From positions 255,316,001 to 255,380,000 of the forward strand of contig NC_091473.1 of NCBI RefSeq assembly GCF_036971445.1: 64,000 nucleotides of DNA. The letters are read 5' to 3'. The notes below the pieces were generated by a model. That model worked only from the letters and a program-made list of their open reading frames with translations. It was not told the origin of the DNA and ran no database searches. Numbering within the stretch: the stretch's first letter is position 1; the number at the start of each line of letters is the position of its first letter. This document shows, one piece after another, positions 1 through 63,719 of the stretch. Source of the stretch: Narcine bancroftii. Taxonomy: Eukaryota. Both the position numbers and the translations under genes were made by a program.

Positions 1-1545
1 TATTACTGGCTCAAGGCAGTAAAAGAAGAGTAGAAATGAAAACTAAATTTGACCTTCTTACAAAAGCACAACAATTGCTGAAGAACAGGAGCCATTTTAT
101 GTACATGGAGAAAAAACAGGTAAATTAAAGGCTGAACAGTTACAAGGGCTATCAGCTAAAAGGCAAATGAACAAGATTAGGAGAAATTATTGGTACAATG
201 ACTACAGATCATGCTGAAATAAATAAGATTTTTAAGAAATTTTACTCTAAACTTTATATTTCAGAATTTAATAATGACATTATTGCTCTGTCTGATTTAT
301 TTCTCCATTTGAATCTACCTACTATTTCACAATATAAATGTGTTAGTCTTGAAGCTCCTATTTTCTCAAGAGGAAATAGTCGTAGCTATTTCTTCCTTGC
401 AATCTGGGAGAGCACCAGGACCAGATGGATATCCTGTTGAATTTTATAAAGCTTTTTCTAAATTGCTGGGTCCATATCCAAGTTCAGTGTTGGACAACTC
501 GTTTAGGGAGGGGAAACTTCCTTCTTTTAATGAAGTGAGTATATCTTATTTTGAAGAAGGGGAAGGAAGCAATTAAATGGGCCTCTTAGAACCATTTCTT
601 TAATTAATGTAGATATGAGGATCTTATCTAAAATTTAGCCCATAGAATAGAGAATATTTTACCATTGATTATCAATACTGATCAGACATGTTTTATCAAA
701 AACCATTACTCATTGTTATATACATCAATTATTGAAAAGAGTACATCGTCCTTCTAACCCAACGAATGAATGTGCATTATTGCTAGATGCCGAAAAAGGG
801 GTTGAATGGGAATATATGTTTGCAGTTTTAAAGAAATTTAATTTTGGTCCAATTTTTATTGGATTAAACTAATGTATTTATACCTTACAGCTTCAATACA
901 CTCAAATACACAACAGTCAACTCTTAGACTTTTTAGGGGAACTTGACAAGGTTGTCTGTTAAACTCTTTGCTTTTTGATCTTAGCTTGGAACCTCTAGTG
1001 ACTGCTTTGCGGAATATTTTCAGAAATAGATTTGAACATAAAATTCCTTTATATGCAGATGATCTATTGTCATTTATTTCTAATCCTGAGACTTCATTAC
1101 CAACCATATTATTCTCTGTTTGCTCAATTTAGTAAATTTTCCAGGTGCATAATAAATTTTATAAGAGTCAATTAATGGATCTTTGGCAGTTTATGCCAAT
1201 TTCCCTTTCAAACTAGTTAAGACCAGTTTAAATATTTGGGAATTACAAAGAGTTGCAAGAATTTATTAAAAGAAAACTTCCTAGACCTACTTAAACAGAT
1301 GAAAGAATCATTGTCGGGATGAACACCTTTCTTTATGTCAATGTATCAATGGAATTAGAATGAGCATTTTACCTGCATTTTTGTTCATGTTCCAATCCTT
1401 ACTAATTTTTGTTCCTAAAACCTATTTTGACTCATTAGGATTTGATTATTTTGTCTTATGTAGGGCAGAACAAATAGCCTCATATAAACAAATCTATCTT
1501 CAAAAAGTACACATGTATGTACCAAATATTTTGTTTTTATTGGTA
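1..1545 (+). mobile_element. Degenerate L1-clade LINE ORF2 fragment (RT region)
   Basis: ORF 340-576 contains GRAPGPDGYPVEFYKAF; YADD-like motif (tatgcagatgat) near 1052; many stops and frameshifts. Confidence 0.85.
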
Positions 1546-2279
1546 AGTCCACATTTGGGGCATTAGGAGTTCCAGTGGGCAGGCAGCTGGGGCCAAGAAC
1601 AGAGTCTGCATTTGGGGCATCGGGATCTCTGGTTGACAGGCAGCCAGGGCCTAGGCGACTATCCATGGTCGGAACATTGGGAGCTACAGAGGACTGGTGG
1701 GCTGGATCACACTAACACTCCACTAGTTTCACTGCCTGCAACATAGCCACATGCGCCACAATCACGTGATCGCAAACCACGTCCACTAACACTACCGTTG
1801 TGAGCACTGGCTCATGTGATTCCTGTCACGGACAACAACACATTTCCACAGGTTACATATTACTTTAAAGAGTGGCATTTGGCTCATGAGCCACTATTTG
1901 GCCACCCCTGGTCTAGACCTTTCCTAAATACACCAGCCTAAATGTCTTTTAAACATTGCAATTGTCCCCGTATCCACCAGTTCCTCCAGCAACCCCTTCT
2001 GTACACCCACCATCCTCTGTATGGATAGTGCCCCAAGGTCCCTTTAGAAATTTCACCCCTCTCACCTTAAATCTCTGCCCTTCCCAATGTTATTTACCTA
2101 TTAGACTATTTATCTTCTCTATTGTCCTTGCCTCATGCCTTTATAAACCTCCATAAGGTCCCCTCCTCACGATCCTATGCATCAAGTAAGATCTTCCAAT
2201 AACCTGCCGTTTCATTGCAGCCATCCTCAAACACCACAGCTTTCTTTTTAATACAATAAATGACGGGTTTTTTTTGCAG

Positions 2280-2304
2280 GAGCTGTTCTGGACCACGTAT
2301 CAAG
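2280..2304 (+). CDS. 25-nt exon ELFWTTYQ(G) resembling the Gla-domain aromatic-stack exon; putative novel Gla protein (5' exons outside window)
   Basis: ttttttttgcag|GAGCTGTTCTGGACCACGTATCAAG|gtatgt; phase 0 to 1; FWxxY motif; same size as exon 3 of F7/F9/F10/PROC. Confidence 0.7.
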
Positions 2305-3034
2305 GTATGTGTTTATTTCTTGTTCTAATTCAGTGCACAGATTAATAAAAATGAGTTTATTGTCATACACAGTGTACAATCTATGAATTTCAGTGTATGC
2401 ACTGAAATTTATTACTTGGTGCAGCTGAACAGGAACTTGTAAAGAAAAATGATAATTGACCAGAAGCTGAACTGGAATAGCCGATGTGGCTCCAAGAACA
2501 GGTGAGAAGCCAGGAATCCTGTGGCAAGTAGCTCACCCCCAATGTTGTCCACCACCTACAGGACTCGAGTCAGGAGTGTGATGGGTCAATCTCCAATTGC
2601 CAGGACGAGGGCACCTTCTATCACACTGAAGAATTCCAACACCATCCACTGCAGTCCATTTGATTGGGATCCCATCTACCACCGTCCACACACAGACAGT
2701 AGTTTGTACCATCTTCAGGATGCATAGCAGCCGCTTACCAGGAATTGTCAATCAACTCCTTGCAAACTACTTTCACCTCTGCCAACTGGAGGGATATGGG
2801 GAGAAAAAGCTCAGGGGGACCCCCCCCCCCCCCCGAAGTTAAACAGGAATGTCTGCAGAGTGAGTACAACACACAAAAGTGCTGGAGAACCTCACCAGGG
2901 GAAGATAAGTTTGGTGGTGGGATCAAATACTGACCAGGTCTGTGCCTGTTTAGCTTCCGAGATCAGACGTATTCAGGCTATTATGCTTCTTATAAGGGAA
3001 AGGAAAACTAGAGGTGATCATTGGGGGATGAGAG

Positions 3035-3995
3035 GTGGAGAGGGTGAGCAAATTTAAGTTCTTGGGAGTCACTATGTCAGAGGAGCTTTCCTGGACCAAA
3101 CAGATTAATCTCATCGTGAAGAAAGCATGTCAGTGCCTCTACTTCCTCAGGTGGTTCCAGAGTTTTGGTATGTCATCAGACACCCTGGGAAATTTCTACG
3201 GAGGTGTGATGGAAAGTGTGCTAACCGGTTGAATCACGGTCTGGTATGACAACACCAGTAACCCTGAGTGTAAAGCCCAGCAAAAAGTAATGGACACAGC
3301 CCAGGACATCACAGGTGAAACTCTTCCCCACCATCGAGAACATCTACAGGAAATGCTGCCGTCTTGTCCATCCTGCTTGTTCATGTGTCTGATTGGAGGG
3401 TGGTAGAGCACATGCACACAGAGGTGCAGATTACATTGACATCACGTTCAGCACAGACATCATGGGCTGAAGGGCCTACTCCTGTACTACACTCTTGTGT
3501 GTATAGGCATTATCAACTGAGTACTGGTGATACAGATCAGTGCATCATAGGCAAAACCCTCCCCACCACTGAGAACATCTACAGGGAACGCTATAGTCAG
3601 AGAGCAGCAGCAATCATCAAGGATCCACCCCACCCAGCACACACTCTTTTCTCGCTGCTGCCATCAGGAGAGAGGTATTGGTGCCTCAAGGCTCGCACCA
3701 CCAGGTTCAGGAACAGCTGCTCCCCCTCCACCATCAGACTCCTCAATGACAAACTCAATCAGGGACTCATTTAAGGTCTCTTATTTTGCATGTTATTTAT
3801 AACTGAATATTTATTTTCTGTATTTGCAGTTTATCTGCATTTCTTTCTTTGTTTCCATTTCTCTCTTTTGTCTACACATCTTTTCTTGACTACTTTTTTT
3901 TTGCACTACTGATAAGTGGTAATTCTGCCCGGCCCACAGTAAAAGGAATCTCAGCGTTGTAATGTGATGTCATGTATGTGCTCCGACAATAAATC
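3035..3995 (+). mobile_element. Rex1/Babar-type LINE 3' fragments
   Basis: KFKFLGVTMSEELSW...KKACQCLYFLR and HPAHTLFSLLPSG...TTRFRNS motifs; tail ending caataaatctgaa. Confidence 0.8.
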
Positions 3996-4329
3996 TGAAA
4001 TCTAAATTTTGAGACCACACCTGTAATATTGGACAGGTCTGTTTTTTATAAATGTATGTTAACAGGTCCTTCCAGCCATTTGAGCCTGTGCCCACCCAAA
4101 CATCCCAAATAACCTCCAACAAGGGTACATTTTGAAAGGTAGGATATCGATTGGGGGAGTGGAGTGACTGATTCCTGGGATGGTGGGTTTGTTCTACAGG
4201 GAGAGGTAAACAGACGAGCTTTATTCTCTTGTTGAGAAGAGAGAGATGATCCCACTGAAATGGACGCAAGTTTGAAGGGACTTGACACACAAGGCGTGAG
4301 TTTTTAAATTTTTTAATTTAATTTTTATT

Positions 4330-4548
4330 TAAATTTAGGCCAACAACGTGATAATAGGCCATACCAGTCCACAAGTGCATGCCACCCAATTAACCTACAA
4401 CCCCCGATATGTTTCAAATGGTGGGAGGAAACTGGGGGTCCTGGGAAAAACAGGGAGAACATACAAATTTCTTAGCGCAGGACTCAAACCCCGGTCCTGT
4501 TTGCTGACGCTGTAAAGGTGCTATGCTAACCACTACACCAACCGTGCC
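4330..4548 (-). mobile_element. tRNA-derived SINE (V-SINE-like)
   Basis: Related to copies at about 16125-16380, 20370-20560, 28190-28433, 29345-29560, 47885-48100, 57710-57950 and 63480-63650; box A/B-like head on the minus strand. Confidence 0.65.
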
Positions 4549-5030
4549 ATCCTGCTTCCCCTGCCTGATGTTCTAGAAGCAAAGGTTGACCAATTCTGGA
4601 CAGAGATGAAGTTTCTCTCTGAGACTCTCATATTCATGGAACAATATTTATTTATTTATTTGTACAGATGAAATACTTGTCCTGCATATATATTGTTTGT
4701 CTGTATGTGTGCAAATGTATAGTTGTGTGTCTGCAAGTTTTTGCAATGAAGACCGGAGAACATTGTTTCATCAGGTTGTACTTCTACAATCAGATGACAA
4801 TAAACTGGACTTGATTTGACTTCTTCACCCAGAGTTTAGTCAATCTTTGGAATTTTCTGACTCTAATAGATTCCAGTCAGAGATTGTTGAATTTTTGTAC
4901 ATGTCGGGAACTAAAGTTGATTTAGAGAAGGCAAATCAGCAGATCTGATCACTGGAGGAGCTGGTGGGGTGCAAACAGCCTTTCCAGCTTCATTTTCTCT
5001 TGCCCTTATTTTCTTTCCTCTGTCCTGCAG

Positions 5031-5126
5031 GTTTATTACCCAAAGCCAATGTGTCGGAGAAGCACGTTGCTCCTGTGAAGCCAGAGCTGCATGAATTCAT
5101 TCAGGATATGCTCAAATTCGGCACTG
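5031..5126 (+). CDS. 96-nt internal exon of putative Gla/coiled-coil protein (GLLPKANVSEKHVAPVKPELHEFIQDMLKFGT)
   Basis: Long polypyrimidine acceptor ...tgtcctgcag|, donor |gtgagg; phase 1-1; in frame with the 2280-2304 exon. Confidence 0.7.
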
Positions 5127-5949
5127 GTGAGGGTATATGGCGACGGTGGTGAGGGTTGTTCATTCCTTCCACAGGCACCTATCTGGGCTTTTGAAACAGA
5201 CTCCTTCCCCCCAGCAGGTCACACCCCCTCTCCCCCCCCCCACTGTGTCACTGCCATTCAAACCACCGCCTGGCCACCAGATCTTTAACATTTTCTTTTC
5301 CAATCTATGAGCAGCGGAAAGGACACATCTCAGGCCTGTGTCTCCAAAAGGTCTCTCAGCTTGTGGACCAAATGATTCATTGATACTCAGAAGCTCAGAG
5401 TAGCAATTCCTGAGCTGAAAATGTCATACACCTCCATCAATGTAAGATGAGAGTTTCTGGTCATTCACATAAAGGTATATATGCACCAAAATTCTTGCAT
5501 TCGCCCGCTGGGAAATCCAGAACTAGATTTCAGAATATAGTGGCACTCACTAGTGATGGAGATGAGGAAGAATTTCTTCTCTCCGAGAATTTGAACTGCT
5601 TGGAGTTGCTGGGATGGAGTCATTTGGAAGAAACAGGAGAATGCAGCTGCTGGAATTCAGAGCAAAATGTAAACTGCTGGATGAACTCACTTCATCAAGC
5701 AGCCTCTGTGGAAGAGGTGACATTTTGGGTCAAGAACCTGCATGAGGATTGGGGGTGGGGTGGGGAGAGGATTCCACCAACATTCGCATTGTCCCTCTCC
5801 CTTCTCTCCCTGGGGATTGTTCTCTCTGAAATTTCCAGGTCTGCTCATCCCTCCCCACCCACCTTTCCCCATCCCTTGGCTCTTTCCCCTACAACCAAAA
5901 GAGGTATAAAACCCATCCCTTCTGATGCTCCTCCACCATCCAGCAACCA

Positions 5950-6575
5950 ACACATAGGAGCAGAAATAGGCCATTCAGCCCATTGTCTGCTCCACCATTT
6001 AATAATGAGCTGATCCATTTCCACACTCAGCCCCACTTCCCGGCCTTCTCCCCACAACCTTTGATGCCCTGGATAATCAAGAACCTATCAATCTCTGCCA
6101 TAAATACACCTGATAACCTGACCTCCACAACCACCTGTGGTAAAAAAAATTCCACAGGTTTACCGTCCTCTGGTTGAAGAAATTCCTCCACATCTCTGTT
6201 CTAAGTGGACACCCTTCAATCCTGAAGTTGTGCCCTCTTGTCCTAGATTCTCCCACCGTGGGAAACGACCTTTCTACATCTACTCTGTCCACGCCTTTCA
6301 CCATTTGACATATTTTAGTGAGATTCCCCCCCCCCCCCATTCTCCTAAATTCCAATGAGTACAGGCCAAGAGCTGTCAGGTGTTCCTCATATGATAATCC
6401 TTTCATTCCTGGAATGAACCTGGTGAACCTCCTCTGAACCCTCTCCAATGTCAGCACATCCTTTCTTAAATGAGGAGCCCAAAACTGTTCACAATACTCC
6501 AAGTGAGGTCCAACCAGTACCTTATAAAGCTTCAACATTACATTTCTGCTCTTATATTCCTCTTGAAATGAATGC
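5950..6575 (-). mobile_element. CR1 LINE 3' end
   Basis: ORF 6077-6625: LYKVLVGPHLEYCEQFWAPHL...LERVQRRFTR...SRTRGH. Confidence 0.9.
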
Positions 6576-7739
6576 CATCCCTTAGCACTTGCGTTGCAAC
6601 CAAAGGAGGTGGGAAACCCATCCATTCAGCTGCTCTTCCACCATCCAGTAACCTTAATAGCCCTGACAGGTGAGGCCTCCTCCGACTTCCTCTGCTGCAT
6701 TCAGTGCTCAGGATGGGACACAAGTGAGACTAAGCATAGACTGGACAACCATTTGACAATAAAAACACACAGAAATGCTGAAGGAACTCAGCAGTCTCAC
6801 AGCCTCCAGAGGAGGTAAACATATATTGCTGATGTTTCAGGCCTGAGTCCTTCATCAAGGTAAAACCATTTGACAGAGCATCTGACTTCCTCACCAGCCT
6901 CTTTAGCTCCCCCTTCCCATTCTTGGGCTTCTCCAGTAATTCGAGGCCAAACACAAGGTACAGGAACAACACCTTGTATTCCGCTGGTGCAATCCACAGC
7001 CCGTTGGTATAAACATTGAATTGTCCAATTTCAGGTACTCATAGGGTCATGGGAAGGCAAGGAGTTGGATATAGGTTCTGGATGGTCCTTTATCGATCCC
7101 CTTTGACAAGGTTCAGGGTTGCACTCTCTTCTTCAGTCAACATACCATAAGGAATGGAGGACATGGACACTTTCATTTCCTGGTACTCCTCTATTACACA
7201 CAAACTTGGTGGGAAGTCCCTCCCCCCTATAGGGGATCAAGGAAATTACATTGGTTGGTCTATCCCACTGCCATCTGACTTGGCCAATCCAAAAAGGTCT
7301 TCTTCCATGTGACAAGCATTATCCTATCAGCATTAAACTACACACTATCCACCTGCAAATTGCATCATTATGTGAATCAATCACCAACCAGTCCCCTTTC
7401 CTCAGGCATTGTTTTTTCACGTCCCCTGTGAGGAAACTCCAGGCTGGTGGCAACTTACTAGCTGATCAGGGGATGCCCAGCAACAAACAGCAAACCATTA
7501 TTGCATTGCTATTTCCTGTTCCCTGTGACCACGTGCAAGCAGAGTAAATTGTCACGGATCAGAGGTTACTCATTAGTAATACAGGTGCAGTCTGAATAAT
7601 CAGGATGGATGCTTATAGAGAAAGTTGCTTCCTAGTTTGGAAAAGTGCAGCAAGGATGTAAAGATTGATTTAATATTGTGAACTTGAGCGATCATCGTTT
7701 GGAGACTCTTCTGTTAAAACTCTTTTTCCTGGTCCTCAG

Positions 7740-7927
7740 TATTCTCTGGGAATGAGACTAAACTGGCATCCATTTTTACCTTGGAAAGGCAAATCCTTGA
7801 AAAGCAAAGGGAAATTATTAAATCTCTCTGGAAGCTGACTGGACACAAAAAGGATCTCTTGGCCTTGGAAGAGGAACTCCTTAAGTTGGTAACTGGCTGT
7901 TTTGACCAGAGTGATGGACAGGTTTAA
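7740..7927 (+). CDS. Terminal coding exon of putative Gla/coiled-coil protein (VFSGNETKLASIFTLERQILEKQREIIKSLWKLTGHKKDLLALEEELLKLVTGCFDQSDGQV*)
   Basis: Acceptor tctttttcctggtcctcag|; phase-1 entry gives 62 open codons to TAA 7925-7927; AATAAA at 8052-8057. Confidence 0.65.
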
Positions 7928-8051
7928 ATGTTTCCAAAAGTAAATGCAAGTTGGGTTTAGTTTGGAATATACAGTATGATTTTGTGAAAACATTAAAATT
8001 TCACCTTTGCTATAAAAGCTCAGCCTTGTGTAAGATTTCAGTCATAATTGC

Positions 8052-8057
8052 AATAAA
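8052..8057 (+). terminator. Polyadenylation signal of putative Gla/coiled-coil gene
   Basis: AATAAA about 125 nt after the stop codon. Confidence 0.5.
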
Positions 8058-8254
8058 ATACTTGTCATACGCAAAATGTACAACATAGTTTGTGCCAAAG
8101 AACTTACTGGTTGAGTGCTTATTGTATGGTTCTCTTTGCATATTTTATTGTGGATTTTTCTGATATTGACTGTGCCTCACAGTCATTCAGAAGATGGTGA
8201 GTCTCCTTGAAAACAAGTCCATGAGTGGTTGTATTAAAGCACATATTTTACCTA

Positions 8255-11784: not shown

Positions 11785-11996
11785 TCGGCGGTCATGACGA
11801 AGCGAACGCCCGGACCTGCCCTCTGGGACTAGCCCCGCCCCCTCCAGACAGGCCCCGCCCCCTCCAGACAGGCCCCGCCTCCAGCTTGTCCCACAATGCC
11901 CCGCGCCCGCCTCGGCCCAGTATGGCGGCTCCCTCTCCCTGACCCTCGGGCCGCCGGGACCTTTGCTCATCTTTCCGCCGGTACCGGGGACAGGAG
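11785..11996 (+). promoter_or_regulatory. CpG-rich promoter and non-coding exon 1 of C1orf74
   Basis: Three GC boxes (gccccgccc/t) at 11832-11880; ZNF143/SBS-like tcccacaatgcccc 11889-11902; YY1-like atggcgg at 11922; donor gag|gtgagt after 11996. Confidence 0.7.
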
Positions 11997-12077
11997 GTGA
12001 GTTCCGGGTCACATATCGCGCCTCACCCGGCCCGCGGACAATGAACCGGTCGGCGGATTGGAGAGGGTCTCCATGGA

Positions 12078-13557
12078 GACCCCCAACCCGATCACGGACC
12101 CCCCCCATCCCGATCATGGACCCCCGACCCCCATCCCGATCATGGACCCCCGACCCCCATCCCGATCACGGACACCCCCATCCCGATCATGGACCCCCGA
12201 CCCCCATCCCGATCACGGACCCCCCGACCCCCATCCCGATCATGGACCCACCGACCCCCATCCTGATCACGGACCCCCCCGACCCCCATCCCGATCACGG
12301 ACCCCCCGACCCCCATCCCGATCATGGACCCCCCGACCCCCATCCCGATCACGGACCCCCCCGACCCCCATCCCGATCATGGACCCCCCGACCCCCATCC
12401 CGATCACGGACCCCCCTGACCCCCATCCCGATAATGGACCACCGACCCCCATCCCGATCACGAACCCCCGGCCCCCATTCCGATCATGGACCCCCCAACC
12501 CCTCTCCCGTTAACGGACCCCCCCTGACTCCCATCCAGATCACGGACCCCCCAACCCCATCCCGATCACGGACCACCCCCCCCATCCCGATCACCGACCC
12601 CCCGACCCCCATCCCGATCATGGACCCCCGACCCCCATCCCGATCACGGACCCCCCCATCCCGATCATGGACCCCCGACCCCCATCCCGATCATGGACCC
12701 CCAACCCCCATCCCGATCACGGACCCCCCCATCCCGATCATGGACCCCCGACCCCCATCCCGATCACGGACCCCCCCCATCCCGATCATGGACCCCCGAC
12801 CCCCATCCCGATCATGGACCCCCGACCCCCATCCCGATCATGGACCCCCCCATCCCGATCACGGACCCCCCCATCCTGATCATGGACCCCCGACCCCCAT
12901 CCCGATCATGGACCCCCGACCCCCATCCCGATCACGGACCCCCCGACCCCCATCCCGATCACGGACCCCCCGACCCCCATCCCGATCATGGACCCCCGAC
13001 CCCCATCCCGATCATGGACCCCCGACCCCCATCCCGATCACGGACCCCCCGACCCCCATCCCGATCATGGACCCCCGACCCCCATCCCGATCACGGACCC
13101 CCCCGACCCCCATCCCGATCACGGACCCCCCGACCCCCATCCCGATCATGGACCCCCCGACCCCCATCCTGATCACGGACCCCCCCGACCCCCATCCCGA
13201 TCACGGACCCCCCGACCCCCATCCCGATCATGGACCCCCCGACCCCCATCCCGATCACGGACCCCCCCGACCCCCATCCCGATCATGGACCCCCCGACCC
13301 CCATCCCGATAATGGACCACCGACCCCCATCCCGATCACGAACCCCCGGCCCCCATTCCGATCATGGACCCCCCAACCCCTCTCCCGTTCACGGACCCCC
13401 CCTTTCTCCCATCCAGATCACGGACCCCCCAACCCCCATCCCGATCACGGACCACCCCCCCCATCCCGATCACCGACCCCCCGACACCCATCCCGATCAC
13501 GGACCCCCCGACCCCTAAACTGATCATGGAGCCCCCTCCCCCCTATCCCGATCACTG
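12078..13557. repeat. C-rich minisatellite, about 27-29-bp unit (gacccccatcccgatcaYggaccccc), in C1orf74 intron 1
   Basis: About 1.5 kb of tandem units with variable C runs; explains all Pro-rich ORFs in 11963-13558. Confidence 0.97.
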
Positions 13558-14535: not shown

Positions 14536-14707
14536 TTGGCAACAGTTTGAGAAATTGGGAGGTCCCTGCTCAGTGTCAGAAACTTGGAAGTGAGCAGGAC
14601 CATGGGGAGGCTCCCACACACTATTGGAGAGTCCAGGAGGTGGGAGAACTCCAATTTACAGAATCTGCAATCCCTGGTATCTCTTGTATTTCACAGTAAT
14701 TATCACC

Positions 14708-15523
14708 ATGGTGGATGCTGCACAGAAGGAACAACTGATCTTTGTCACTCAGAAGTCTTTAAGGATGAATCGAAAGAAACATTTTTCAGAATCGCGCTGC
14801 TTGCAGCTCTTTGCTGAAATCCTAACTGTAGATTCAGGATTAAAGCCTGCTTTCTTATTTGATTATTGTTTATCAAATGCAGAACAGATCCAAGAATATG
14901 TCCAGGAGCTGCAACAAACTGGGCTTCTCTCTGAAAATTTGCACATCCTCAGCATGCAAGAGAATGTCTTAATAATAAATTTAAACCGAATCATCCAACA
15001 CTTGGAAAGAGCACTGCAAGAAAATGGTGTTCAAGTCATTGACGTCTCTGTGCACAGAGAGAATCCACAGCTCGCTGAGACGTGGGTGACAAAACAAGTC
15101 AGGGCCCAGGTGGATATTATTTGGAAGCACTTGAAATCGCAGGTCATTCAAACAGGGGAGAGCAAACCAGGTTTGGTTACTGCAAGTGAGATTTTCTCTT
15201 CAGAGTGGAACCTCTGTACAATGTTTGGGTTTCTCCTCGGGTTCCCTGCTTCATACTGGTTTGATTTTAACACGAGTTTTGAAAATTGTTTAAGTATGAC
15301 TCCACTTCGGGCTTTCTCGGTCTCTGCTTTTTGTCCCAGAATCACCAAAAACCTCAAGCATCGAATGTACTCATTCAGTGTCCCAGATATTCTGTACTTG
15401 GATTTGCAGAGCGCTATAAAGACTTGGCAGAGGGAACTGCAGTCAGACTTTCAAACTCAGACCATGTTCTCCCATCTCTGCGTTTCAACAGAATCTGTAT
15501 GTCTGTCTGCAGTTATGTTGTGA
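14708..15523 (+). CDS. C1orf74: UPF0739 / DUF4504 protein C1orf74 homolog, 271 aa, single coding exon
   Basis: Motifs GLKPAFLFD, SSEWNLCTMFGFLLGFPASY, NCLSMTPLRAF, YSFSVP and C-terminal LSAVML match C1orf74; accATGg Kozak; acceptor tcacag| at 14696; synteny with TRAF3IP3 and G0S2. Confidence 0.95.
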   Translation: MVDAAQKEQLIFVTQKSLRMNRKKHFSESRCLQLFAEILTVDSGLKPAFLFDYCLSNAEQIQEYVQELQQTGLLSENLHILSMQENVLIINLNRIIQHLERALQENGVQVIDVSVHRENPQLAETWVTKQVRAQVDIIWKHLKSQVIQTGESKPGLVTASEIFSSEWNLCTMFGFLLGFPASYWFDFNTSFENCLSMTPLRAFSVSAFCPRITKNLKHRMYSFSVPDILYLDLQSAIKTWQRELQSDFQTQTMFSHLCVSTESVCLSAVML

Positions 15524-62927: not shown

Positions 62928-63203
62928 TCAGGAGGCATGTTTCCGCTGCCATCTTGGGCTCTGCGCTTCCTTCCCGGCCGGCTGCCGCAGCTGCTTCTGC
63001 CGAGCGAGGACCGAGCAGACTCTCGGTGGCTGCTCCCCTTTCTCGCTCGACGTGAATGGGTAGCACATCGTCTCCATCAGCCCCAGCACCACCCCGAAGA
63101 ATGTCAGCACCGTGCCCACCGCATAAATCTTCAACATCTTCCTGTTGGGTCGCTGGCTCAGCATCTCCCGAGCAAAGGGGATCAACTCGCTCACCGTCTC
63201 CAT
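62928..63203 (-). CDS. G0S2: G0/G1 switch protein 2 (ATGL inhibitor), 91 aa
   Basis: METVSELIPFAREMLSQRPNRKMLKIYAVGTVLTFFGVVLGLMETMCYPF...RKHAS matches G0S2; acceptor ttttgttgtag| at 63211-63212, 7 nt before the ATG. Confidence 0.95.
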   Translation of the reverse strand: METVSELIPFAREMLSQRPNRKMLKIYAVGTVLTFFGVVLGLMETMCYPFTSSEKGEQPPRVCSVLARQKQLRQPAGKEAQSPRWQRKHAS

Positions 63204-63719
63204 CTCGCTCCTACAACAAAAGCACGGATACTGATAATCCCTGAACACCACAACTTCCCCAGGGTAGTTCAAGGTGACAGGGGATTGGACTGCTCTGGAG
63301 GGCCATGGACTGGGGGACAAGGCAGAAGAATGGTTCAGCACAGACTATGTTCTATAGGAAAGGCCAGAGGGCAGTGGAAGAAGGGACAATCACAGCATTG
63401 GACTGGTATATGCAATAGGAAAGGTTTTGTTCCAGTCTTGCAAGCATGGACTTTGGGCCTAAGGGCCTGCTTCCCTCCATTCTATTTCTCCCATCAACTT
63501 CCCCCGCGTTCCACATCAATGGCCCATTAACGTACACTCTGGGAGGTGGTTGCTAACCGGAACAGTCAGGGAGACCCACGGGGAGAACGTGCAAACTCCA
63601 CACAGACAGTGCCTGCGGTCGGGATCGAGCCCGGGGCTCCGATGAAGCTGTAAACTCCTCCAGCAGGATGCAGGAGGCCCGGAGCGGGTGCTGAGCAGGG
63701 GAAGGGAGGGAGGGGCACA

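Follow-up and report, generated by a model that had tools for sequence, protein, structure and literature searches.

Vitamin K-dependent proteins of vertebrates form a short list that is treated as nearly closed. The clotting-factor group (F7, F9, F10, protein C, protein Z, sirtilin and prothrombin) is built on a signal peptide, a carboxylase propeptide, a Gla domain and a 25-nt exon that encodes an aromatic stack. GAS6 and protein S are secreted, non-enzymatic Gla proteins that bridge phosphatidylserine surfaces to partners. The PRRG/TMG proteins are likewise short Gla proteins without a protease, and matrix Gla protein and osteocalcin are small, secreted and vitamin K-dependent, and occur in sharks too (available text of PMC8006282). 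Here we describe a gene of the ray Narcine bancroftii that joins a Gla domain of the clotting-factor type to a predicted coiled-coil tail. It was recognized in a window of 64,000 nt (contig NC_091473.1, here C11, 255,316,001-255,380,000, forward strand).

With the clotting-factor genes the Narcine gene shares the four elements listed above and the intron phases 1/0/1. In the PDB its product is closest in sequence to factor X, prothrombin and factor IX, with matches confined to the pro-Gla part. Unlike these proteins, it has no EGF, kringle or protease domain and carries a linker and a heptad helix instead; its omega loop has diverged, and its Gla domain groups with shark and ray relatives and with none of the ray's 13 other Gla exons. 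The product would be secreted and non-enzymatic like GAS6 and protein S, but it has neither EGF repeats nor laminin-G domains, and with a mature chain of 139 amino acids its valence would come from oligomerisation. A preliminary description of this DNA had tied the 25-nt exon to F7, F9, F10, PROC and F2. The exon is present here, but it is not specific to those genes, because it is also found in the paralogue L034, which groups with protein S/GAS6. The protein differs from PRRG/TMG in having no transmembrane segment and no PPxY motif, and the two fall on separate branches of the tree. Whereas shark matrix Gla protein and osteocalcin genes adjoin Ddx47/Erp27 (PMC8006282, available text), the Narcine gene lies beside IRF6/C1orf74 and has a clotting-factor-type Gla exon and a coiled-coil tail.

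Gene structure and transcripts

The Narcine bancroftii gene is real, spliced and composed of five exons. As the preliminary description had it, three exons in the window (2280-2304, 5031-5126 and 7740-7927, the last ending in the stop) are flanked by AG/GT, are in frame when spliced and are followed by AATAAA at 8052. It had also predicted a propeptide-Gla exon and a signal-peptide exon to the left, and both were found there. Negative coordinates below are C11 positions minus 255,316,000. The parts of the gene are as follows.

C11:255304044-255304080, + strand: promoter with HNF4-, HNF1- and FoxA-type sites (motif scan)
Coding C11:255304195-255304261, ~11.8 kb left of the window, + strand: exon 1, signal peptide (loose end in run X4 and orthologue leaders)
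C11:255314683-255314843 (-1317 to -1157, ~1.2 kb left of the window), + strand: exon 2, 161 nt, phase 1 to 0, propeptide and Gla residues 1-37 (PF00594, contigs)
1..2279, + strand: rest of intron 2, with the gene's 5' portion beyond the left edge of the window
2280..2304, + strand: exon 3, 25 nt, phase 0 to 1, encoding the F40-W41-x-x-Y44 aromatic stack (sequence; loose-end contig chain exon 2 to 3 to 4)
5031..5126, + strand: exon 4, 96 nt, phase 1 to 1, encoding the variable linker and one of the two N-glycosylation sequons (sequence, contigs)
7740..7927, + strand: coding part of exon 5, with the second sequon, the ~53-residue heptad helix, the terminal Cys and the stop (sequence, contigs, models)
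7928..8057, + strand: 3' untranslated region to the first AATAAA (8052-8057) (sequence, contigs)

A search of the genome with PF00594 returned 15 matches, one of which is exon 2 (42 bits against a cut-off of 27), in the orientation of the gene. The spliced RefSeq model of the gene (P0001, Narcine bancroftii, 217 amino acids) reaches 50.4 bits against the same cut-off, and Gla is its sole Pfam domain. The last exon is single copy in the genome by DNA search.

Splicing was read from contigs of four public runs belonging to one study; the RNA type of these runs is a guess, but the GT..AG joins behave like spliced RNA. Junction 5126/7740 is crossed at GT..AG by contigs of all four runs. The chain from exon 2 through the 25-nt exon to the exon at 5031, which includes junction 2304/5031, is present as a loose end in all four as well, with exon 2 only partial in one. 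Both junctions had been proposed beforehand. Past the first AATAAA, contigs of three of the four runs continue to 8200-8240.

Upstream, the Gla exon is joined by three different exons in contig loose ends. The signal-peptide exon (ending at -11739) is joined in run X4, the high-depth run, through a loose end of 13 nt that maps once in 264 kb, and the encoded leader is identical to the leaders of five orthologues at 9-14 of 22-23 positions. In run X1 another upstream exon, ending near C11:255302972 and without a signal-peptide frame, forms a minor alternative 5' end. In a single contig of run X3 an internal IRF6 exon (C11:255291741) is spliced to the Gla exon in the same phase, on 29 nt of evidence. 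We regard this join as low-depth read-through; it would link IRF6 in frame with the pro-Gla-helix part.

P0001 is an automatic model labelled 'uncharacterized', so the protein, which the preliminary description called novel, is uncharacterized rather than unseen. The 5' end of this model is wrong: its 5' exons, ~12.2 and ~10.5 kb left of the window, match none of the three upstream joins seen and are unlike the orthologue leaders.

The depth of the junction contig is 24,845 in one run and 8.8, 9.8 and 39.9 in the other three, whereas a repeat bin has similar depth in X1 and X4 (72,314 versus 92,620). HNF4-, HNF1- and FoxA-type sites are located no more than 150 nt from the first ATG. HNF1 sites occur in 1 of 797 equal windows and HNF4 sites in 9 of 797; both together occur in 1 of 797, here only, whereas FoxA sites are common (293/797). 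The promoter scan was post hoc and used HNF consensus sequences. Because of the HNF4 and HNF1 sites, the liver is probably the place of synthesis. Set against a liver-made secreted product are the facts that exon 1 is supported by a 13-nt loose end and homology only, that contig depth is a poor measure of expression, that run X4 carries no tissue label and that all four runs come from one study.

Protein product and Gla domain

The corrected product has 178 amino acids from the second of three in-frame ATGs (-11805) and comprises a 22-residue leader, a 17-residue propeptide and a mature chain of 139 residues (~16 kDa). The leader exon is hydrophobic and homologous to the orthologue leaders, and we take it as a signal peptide from its sequence. 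The propeptide has F-16, A-10 and L-6 and a basic RxRR cleavage site (R-4/R-1), in a register that matches factor X in the PDB alignment. Since signal peptide and propeptide are intact, secretion, carboxylation and furin cleavage are very probable. Pfam detects no EGF, kringle, laminin-G or protease domain in the product, and the stop at 7927 lies within spliced contigs. Two sequons and a single Cys in the tail hold as first described, and so does the absence of a transmembrane segment (the best 19-residue hydropathy of the mature chain is 0.57); there is no PPxY in the translation.

The Gla domain contains the C17-C22 pair, the F40-W41 stack and 10 Glu in residues 1-40 (6, 7, 16, 19, 20, 25, 26, 29, 34 and 38), plus an extra Cys at position 30. 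The usual count is 9-13, and membrane binding by Gla domains is established (both from the available text of PMC9669250). Among 12 elasmobranch sequences of type A, the long-linker form to which Narcine belongs, C17-C22 and Glu 6, 7, 16, 20, 25, 26 and 29 are kept in all and Glu19 in 11.

The omega loop tells against membrane binding of the usual kind. Its canonical form has hydrophobic residues at 4, 5 and 8, a basic residue at 9 and Gly at 11. That form is absent in Narcine, which has Gly4, Leu9 and Asn11, and the change is common to the type-A clade: position 4 is Gly in 12 of 12 type-A sequences, position 9 is hydrophobic where K/R is found in 11 of the 13 other Gla domains of the ray, and position 11 is N, D or S where all 13 have Gly. 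Furthermore, Glu14 is replaced in Narcine (by Gln) and in four other batoid sequences, and the FW pair is missing from four shark models. Because the calcium-binding core is kept while the omega loop is systematically changed, the family may bind membranes differently from clotting factors or may bind another target.

One such target would be mineral. The protein could be a plasma calcium-phosphate chaperone or mineralisation regulator whose clustered Gla heads bind nascent mineral, like matrix Gla protein. Core Glu residues persist despite decay of the membrane-inserting loop and, in some sharks, of the aromatic stack, and the very high depth in one run would fit a stoichiometric role; mineral-binding Gla proteins are known in sharks (PMC8006282, in its available text). 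We consider this doubtful, however, given that the propeptide, Gla fold and exon layout are of the clotting-factor type and that hydrophobic residues remain at 5, 8 and 9. A weak further point is that eight supplements of a catshark cartilage study (PMC13188829, available in part) gave no match, although identifiers may differ.

A family in cartilaginous fish

We searched for relatives with phmmer over 1.84 billion representatives, with a full-length profile and with a tail-only profile. Proteins that combine Gla and helix were found in 15 species of 13 genera, covering rays, sharks and one chimaera. The batoid genera are Narcine, Pristis, Hemitrygon, Hypanus, Mobula (two species), Rhinoraja and Leucoraja; the others are Heptranchias, Heterodontus, Cetorhinus, Rhincodon, Scyliorhinus (two species) and Callorhinchus. 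In databases these proteins are called factor IX-like, factor X-like, GAS6-like, protein Z-like or uncharacterized. The linker varies widely in length and sequence among orthologues. The tail profile matches 17 of 163 proteins, all chondrichthyan. Ten of these are its training set; the other seven match at E 2.8e-10 or better, and the next best protein has E 0.33. Beyond cartilaginous fish no tail homologue was found among annotated proteins, two of the searches having scored the top ~8,000 candidates. The tail could be assigned to no known family lacking Gla; such an assignment was one of the three outcomes by which the preliminary description could have failed, and the other two, a missing upstream Gla exon and missing spliced reads across the junctions, also turned out in its favour.

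No description of a Gla-coiled-coil protein was found in the literature covered, which excludes subscription journals and some supplements, and a literature search with accessions returned no paper. Such a protein is not named in the available text of PMC9643190, PMC9669250, PMC8006282, PMC3466250 and PMC6850207, nor is the family in the main text, as far as available, of a nurse shark plasma proteome (PMC9207270). The Gla-coiled-coil family of sharks, rays and chimaeras is thus apparently undescribed. A conserved family of this kind in a whole vertebrate class would add an architecture that has been hidden under names like 'factor X-like'. It bears on the evolution of clotting and membrane recognition in early jawed vertebrates, and counts of shark clotting factors taken from annotation names are inflated.

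The same names, together with the diverged omega loop, could be read as signs of a truncated, decaying clotting-factor duplicate without function. We consider this very unlikely and already disfavoured: frames are open with the same layout in the 15 species, the heptad pattern is conserved despite low identity, and transcripts are spliced.

A tree was built from 54 of 166 filtered Gla domains (112 were excluded, being unclassified by the motif rules) and the ray's 13 other exons, over 61 columns; its deep forks are unresolved. Type A forms a clade of 15 rows including P0001 (support 99/91). Type B has a short linker, or EGF repeats replacing the helix, and groups with type A at 94/93; the ray's 13 other Gla exons fall elsewhere. 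The Heterodontus Gla-helix protein P0032 lies outside the clade. Among the type-B Gla domains are those of the shark and ray Gla-EGF proteins P0006 and P0010, which have adjacent accessions on the same contigs as family members; they are likewise uncharacterized and have EGF repeats where the family has the helix. Gla followed by EGF repeats without a protease thus appears as a second uncharacterized design in the same shark and ray cluster (P0006, P0010, P0152 and P0156). Similar Gla-EGF proteins with the same terminal EGF motif are found in marine eukaryote records (P0017, P0023 and P0154); P0017 and P0023 have EGF repeats, lack a protease and form a separate branch in the tree.

Fused models and adjacent accessions (P0019, P0156) indicate that A and B genes stand in tandem in other species. 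A Leucoraja model (P0015) combines C1orf74 with a Gla exon of type A. In Narcine 464 kb contain a single family gene, and a genome-wide search revealed no gene of type B. The last ~15 residues of the Narcine protein (window 7860-7927) resemble type B of other rays and sharks and the rest resembles type A. This suggests a hybrid of A and B genes that arose by deletion within a tandem cluster. The switch has a permutation p of 0.004, calculated post hoc with three type-B rows, and one of eight type-A controls gave p 0.03.

Rapid change in the family raises the prospect of an innate-immune opsonin or agglutinin, whose multivalent heads would clump or tag dying cells, enveloped particles or bacteria through anionic lipid. 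Members are only 30-43% identical to P0001, and tandem paralogues and copy turnover point the same way. Collectin-type plasma proteins carry a recognition head on an oligomerising stalk, and the layout here resembles theirs. The protein lacks a domain for receptor binding comparable to the laminin-G pair in GAS6, and we hold this role to be improbable.

Predicted coiled-coil tail and self-association

The preliminary description had assigned a coiled coil to the whole tail. This holds for the last ~53 residues; the exon at 5031-5126 encodes the variable linker instead. Over 14 rows the hydrophobicity of the tail has a period of 3.49-3.5 (power 63, against 34 at 3.6 and 10 at 3.67). AlphaFold2 models residues 161-213 (P0001 numbering, used for all helix residues) as one helix, with block predicted local distance difference test (pLDDT) values of 82-98 over 161-210; the remainder is poorly modelled (whole-model mean pLDDT 66, predicted template modelling score (pTM) 0.31). 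Four copies of residues 155-217 score 0.55 against 0.02 for the best control; the runs share at least 95% of contacts, and partner pLDDT is at least 72. In calibration on microbes, 21 of 30 solved self-pairs and none of 23 single chains attained the score mark; on eukaryotes, 17 of 29 self-pairs (7 of 16 in animals) and none of 30 single chains did so. These models make self-association of the tail probable, so that homology and prediction support the earlier proposal of a secreted, possibly oligomeric coiled-coil protein.

The modelled contacts are antiparallel, with residue sums of 368-378 (median 373). Cys residues stand at both helix ends in 6 of 17 family members (four fused or gapped models being excluded), and the pairs of all six sum to 372-374. 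An antiparallel geometry with heads at both ends is, on these models, about an even call. Several points count against the modelled assembly. The calibration used two copies and carries over only roughly to a job with four, the modelling made no use of the alignment, and amphipathic helices are frequently packed together in models of this kind. Five of the six two-Cys members are close type-B ray orthologues that represent one event, so the support amounts to about two independent cases. Cross-links between equivalent Cys residues would also be possible in a parallel bundle, and the Narcine tail has the C-terminal Cys alone.

The heptad classes form two hydrophobic stripes (0.89 and 0.82) on either side of a mostly polar one (0.35). 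Two such seams, and the tandem arrangement of A and B genes in other species, would also suit a helix that docks another plasma protein, such as a type-B paralogue or a cofactor, making the protein the membrane-targeting subunit of a hetero-complex. We regard this as quite unlikely in view of the lone Narcine gene, the lack of a type-B gene genome-wide and a homo-oligomer model that passes its controls.

Foldseek with the AlphaFold2 model gave weak Gla matches only, none at E 0.001 or better, the Gla domain being modelled without calcium and at the low pTM given above. The ESM Atlas gave no usable feature match for the mature region or the tail, its structure rows being generic helices. A fibrinogen origin of the tail (PF08702), hinted at weakly by Pfam, was rejected: weak matches are limited to 2 of 14 tails (best E 0.005), no fibrinogen chain is among the PDB matches to E 10, and the ray's own fibrinogen frames score no higher than 3.0 bits, whereas reversed controls reach 5.3.

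Proposed function

Because a Gla head is joined to a coiled-coil stalk in place of an enzyme, the protein is likely to circulate as a multi-headed, non-enzymatic membrane binder. In the sequence of events that we propose, it would be synthesized in the liver, with carboxylation guided by the propeptide, cleaved by a furin-type protease and then secreted. The helix would bundle chains into an antiparallel oligomer, allowing several Gla heads with calcium to bind anionic membranes at once. The bound oligomer would then bridge or shield phosphatidylserine-exposing membranes in haemostasis without enzyme activity. The exon chain, domain content, family membership and gene order are observations, and the events beyond them are our proposal. 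We put forward this complete picture, a liver-made, gamma-carboxylated plasma glycoprotein acting as an antiparallel oligomer, as a tentative model that falls somewhat short of an even chance; an anionic-membrane target in haemostasis, taken by itself, is plausible but slightly more tentative still.

We speculate further, with less confidence and as something rather unlikely, that this is an abundant chondrichthyan plasma protein whose design has no known counterpart in bony vertebrates. It would be a bipolar antiparallel bundle with Gla heads at both ends that cross-links membranes of activated or dying cells, forming a branch of haemostasis or innate defence that works without enzyme activity and has been retained since the shark-chimaera split. 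If the predicted valence holds, the 139-residue chain would be a natural multivalent Gla scaffold and a candidate phosphatidylserine probe or clotting modulator.

Genomic neighbourhood

The gene order in Narcine is IRF6, the Gla-coiled-coil gene, C1orf74 and then G0S2. Human 1q32 has the same order and is not known to carry the Gla gene. Two neighbours lie within the window.

14594..15523, + strand: C1orf74 open frame (DUF4504)
62928-63344, - strand: G0S2 open frame

About 57 kb right of the window there is a weak EGF-like match (E 0.036), which may be LAMB3. Between the gene and C1orf74, at 11798-13523, the window contains a long G+C-rich tandem repeat with proline-rich frames in all three + frames. 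Intron 1 (L002:1-6250) holds a long element resembling a long interspersed nuclear element, in reverse orientation and, judged by eye, apparently near-complete. Elsewhere in the genome, identical Gla exons at C27:64257375 and C345:7376, on a chromosome and a small contig, are probably an assembly duplicate.

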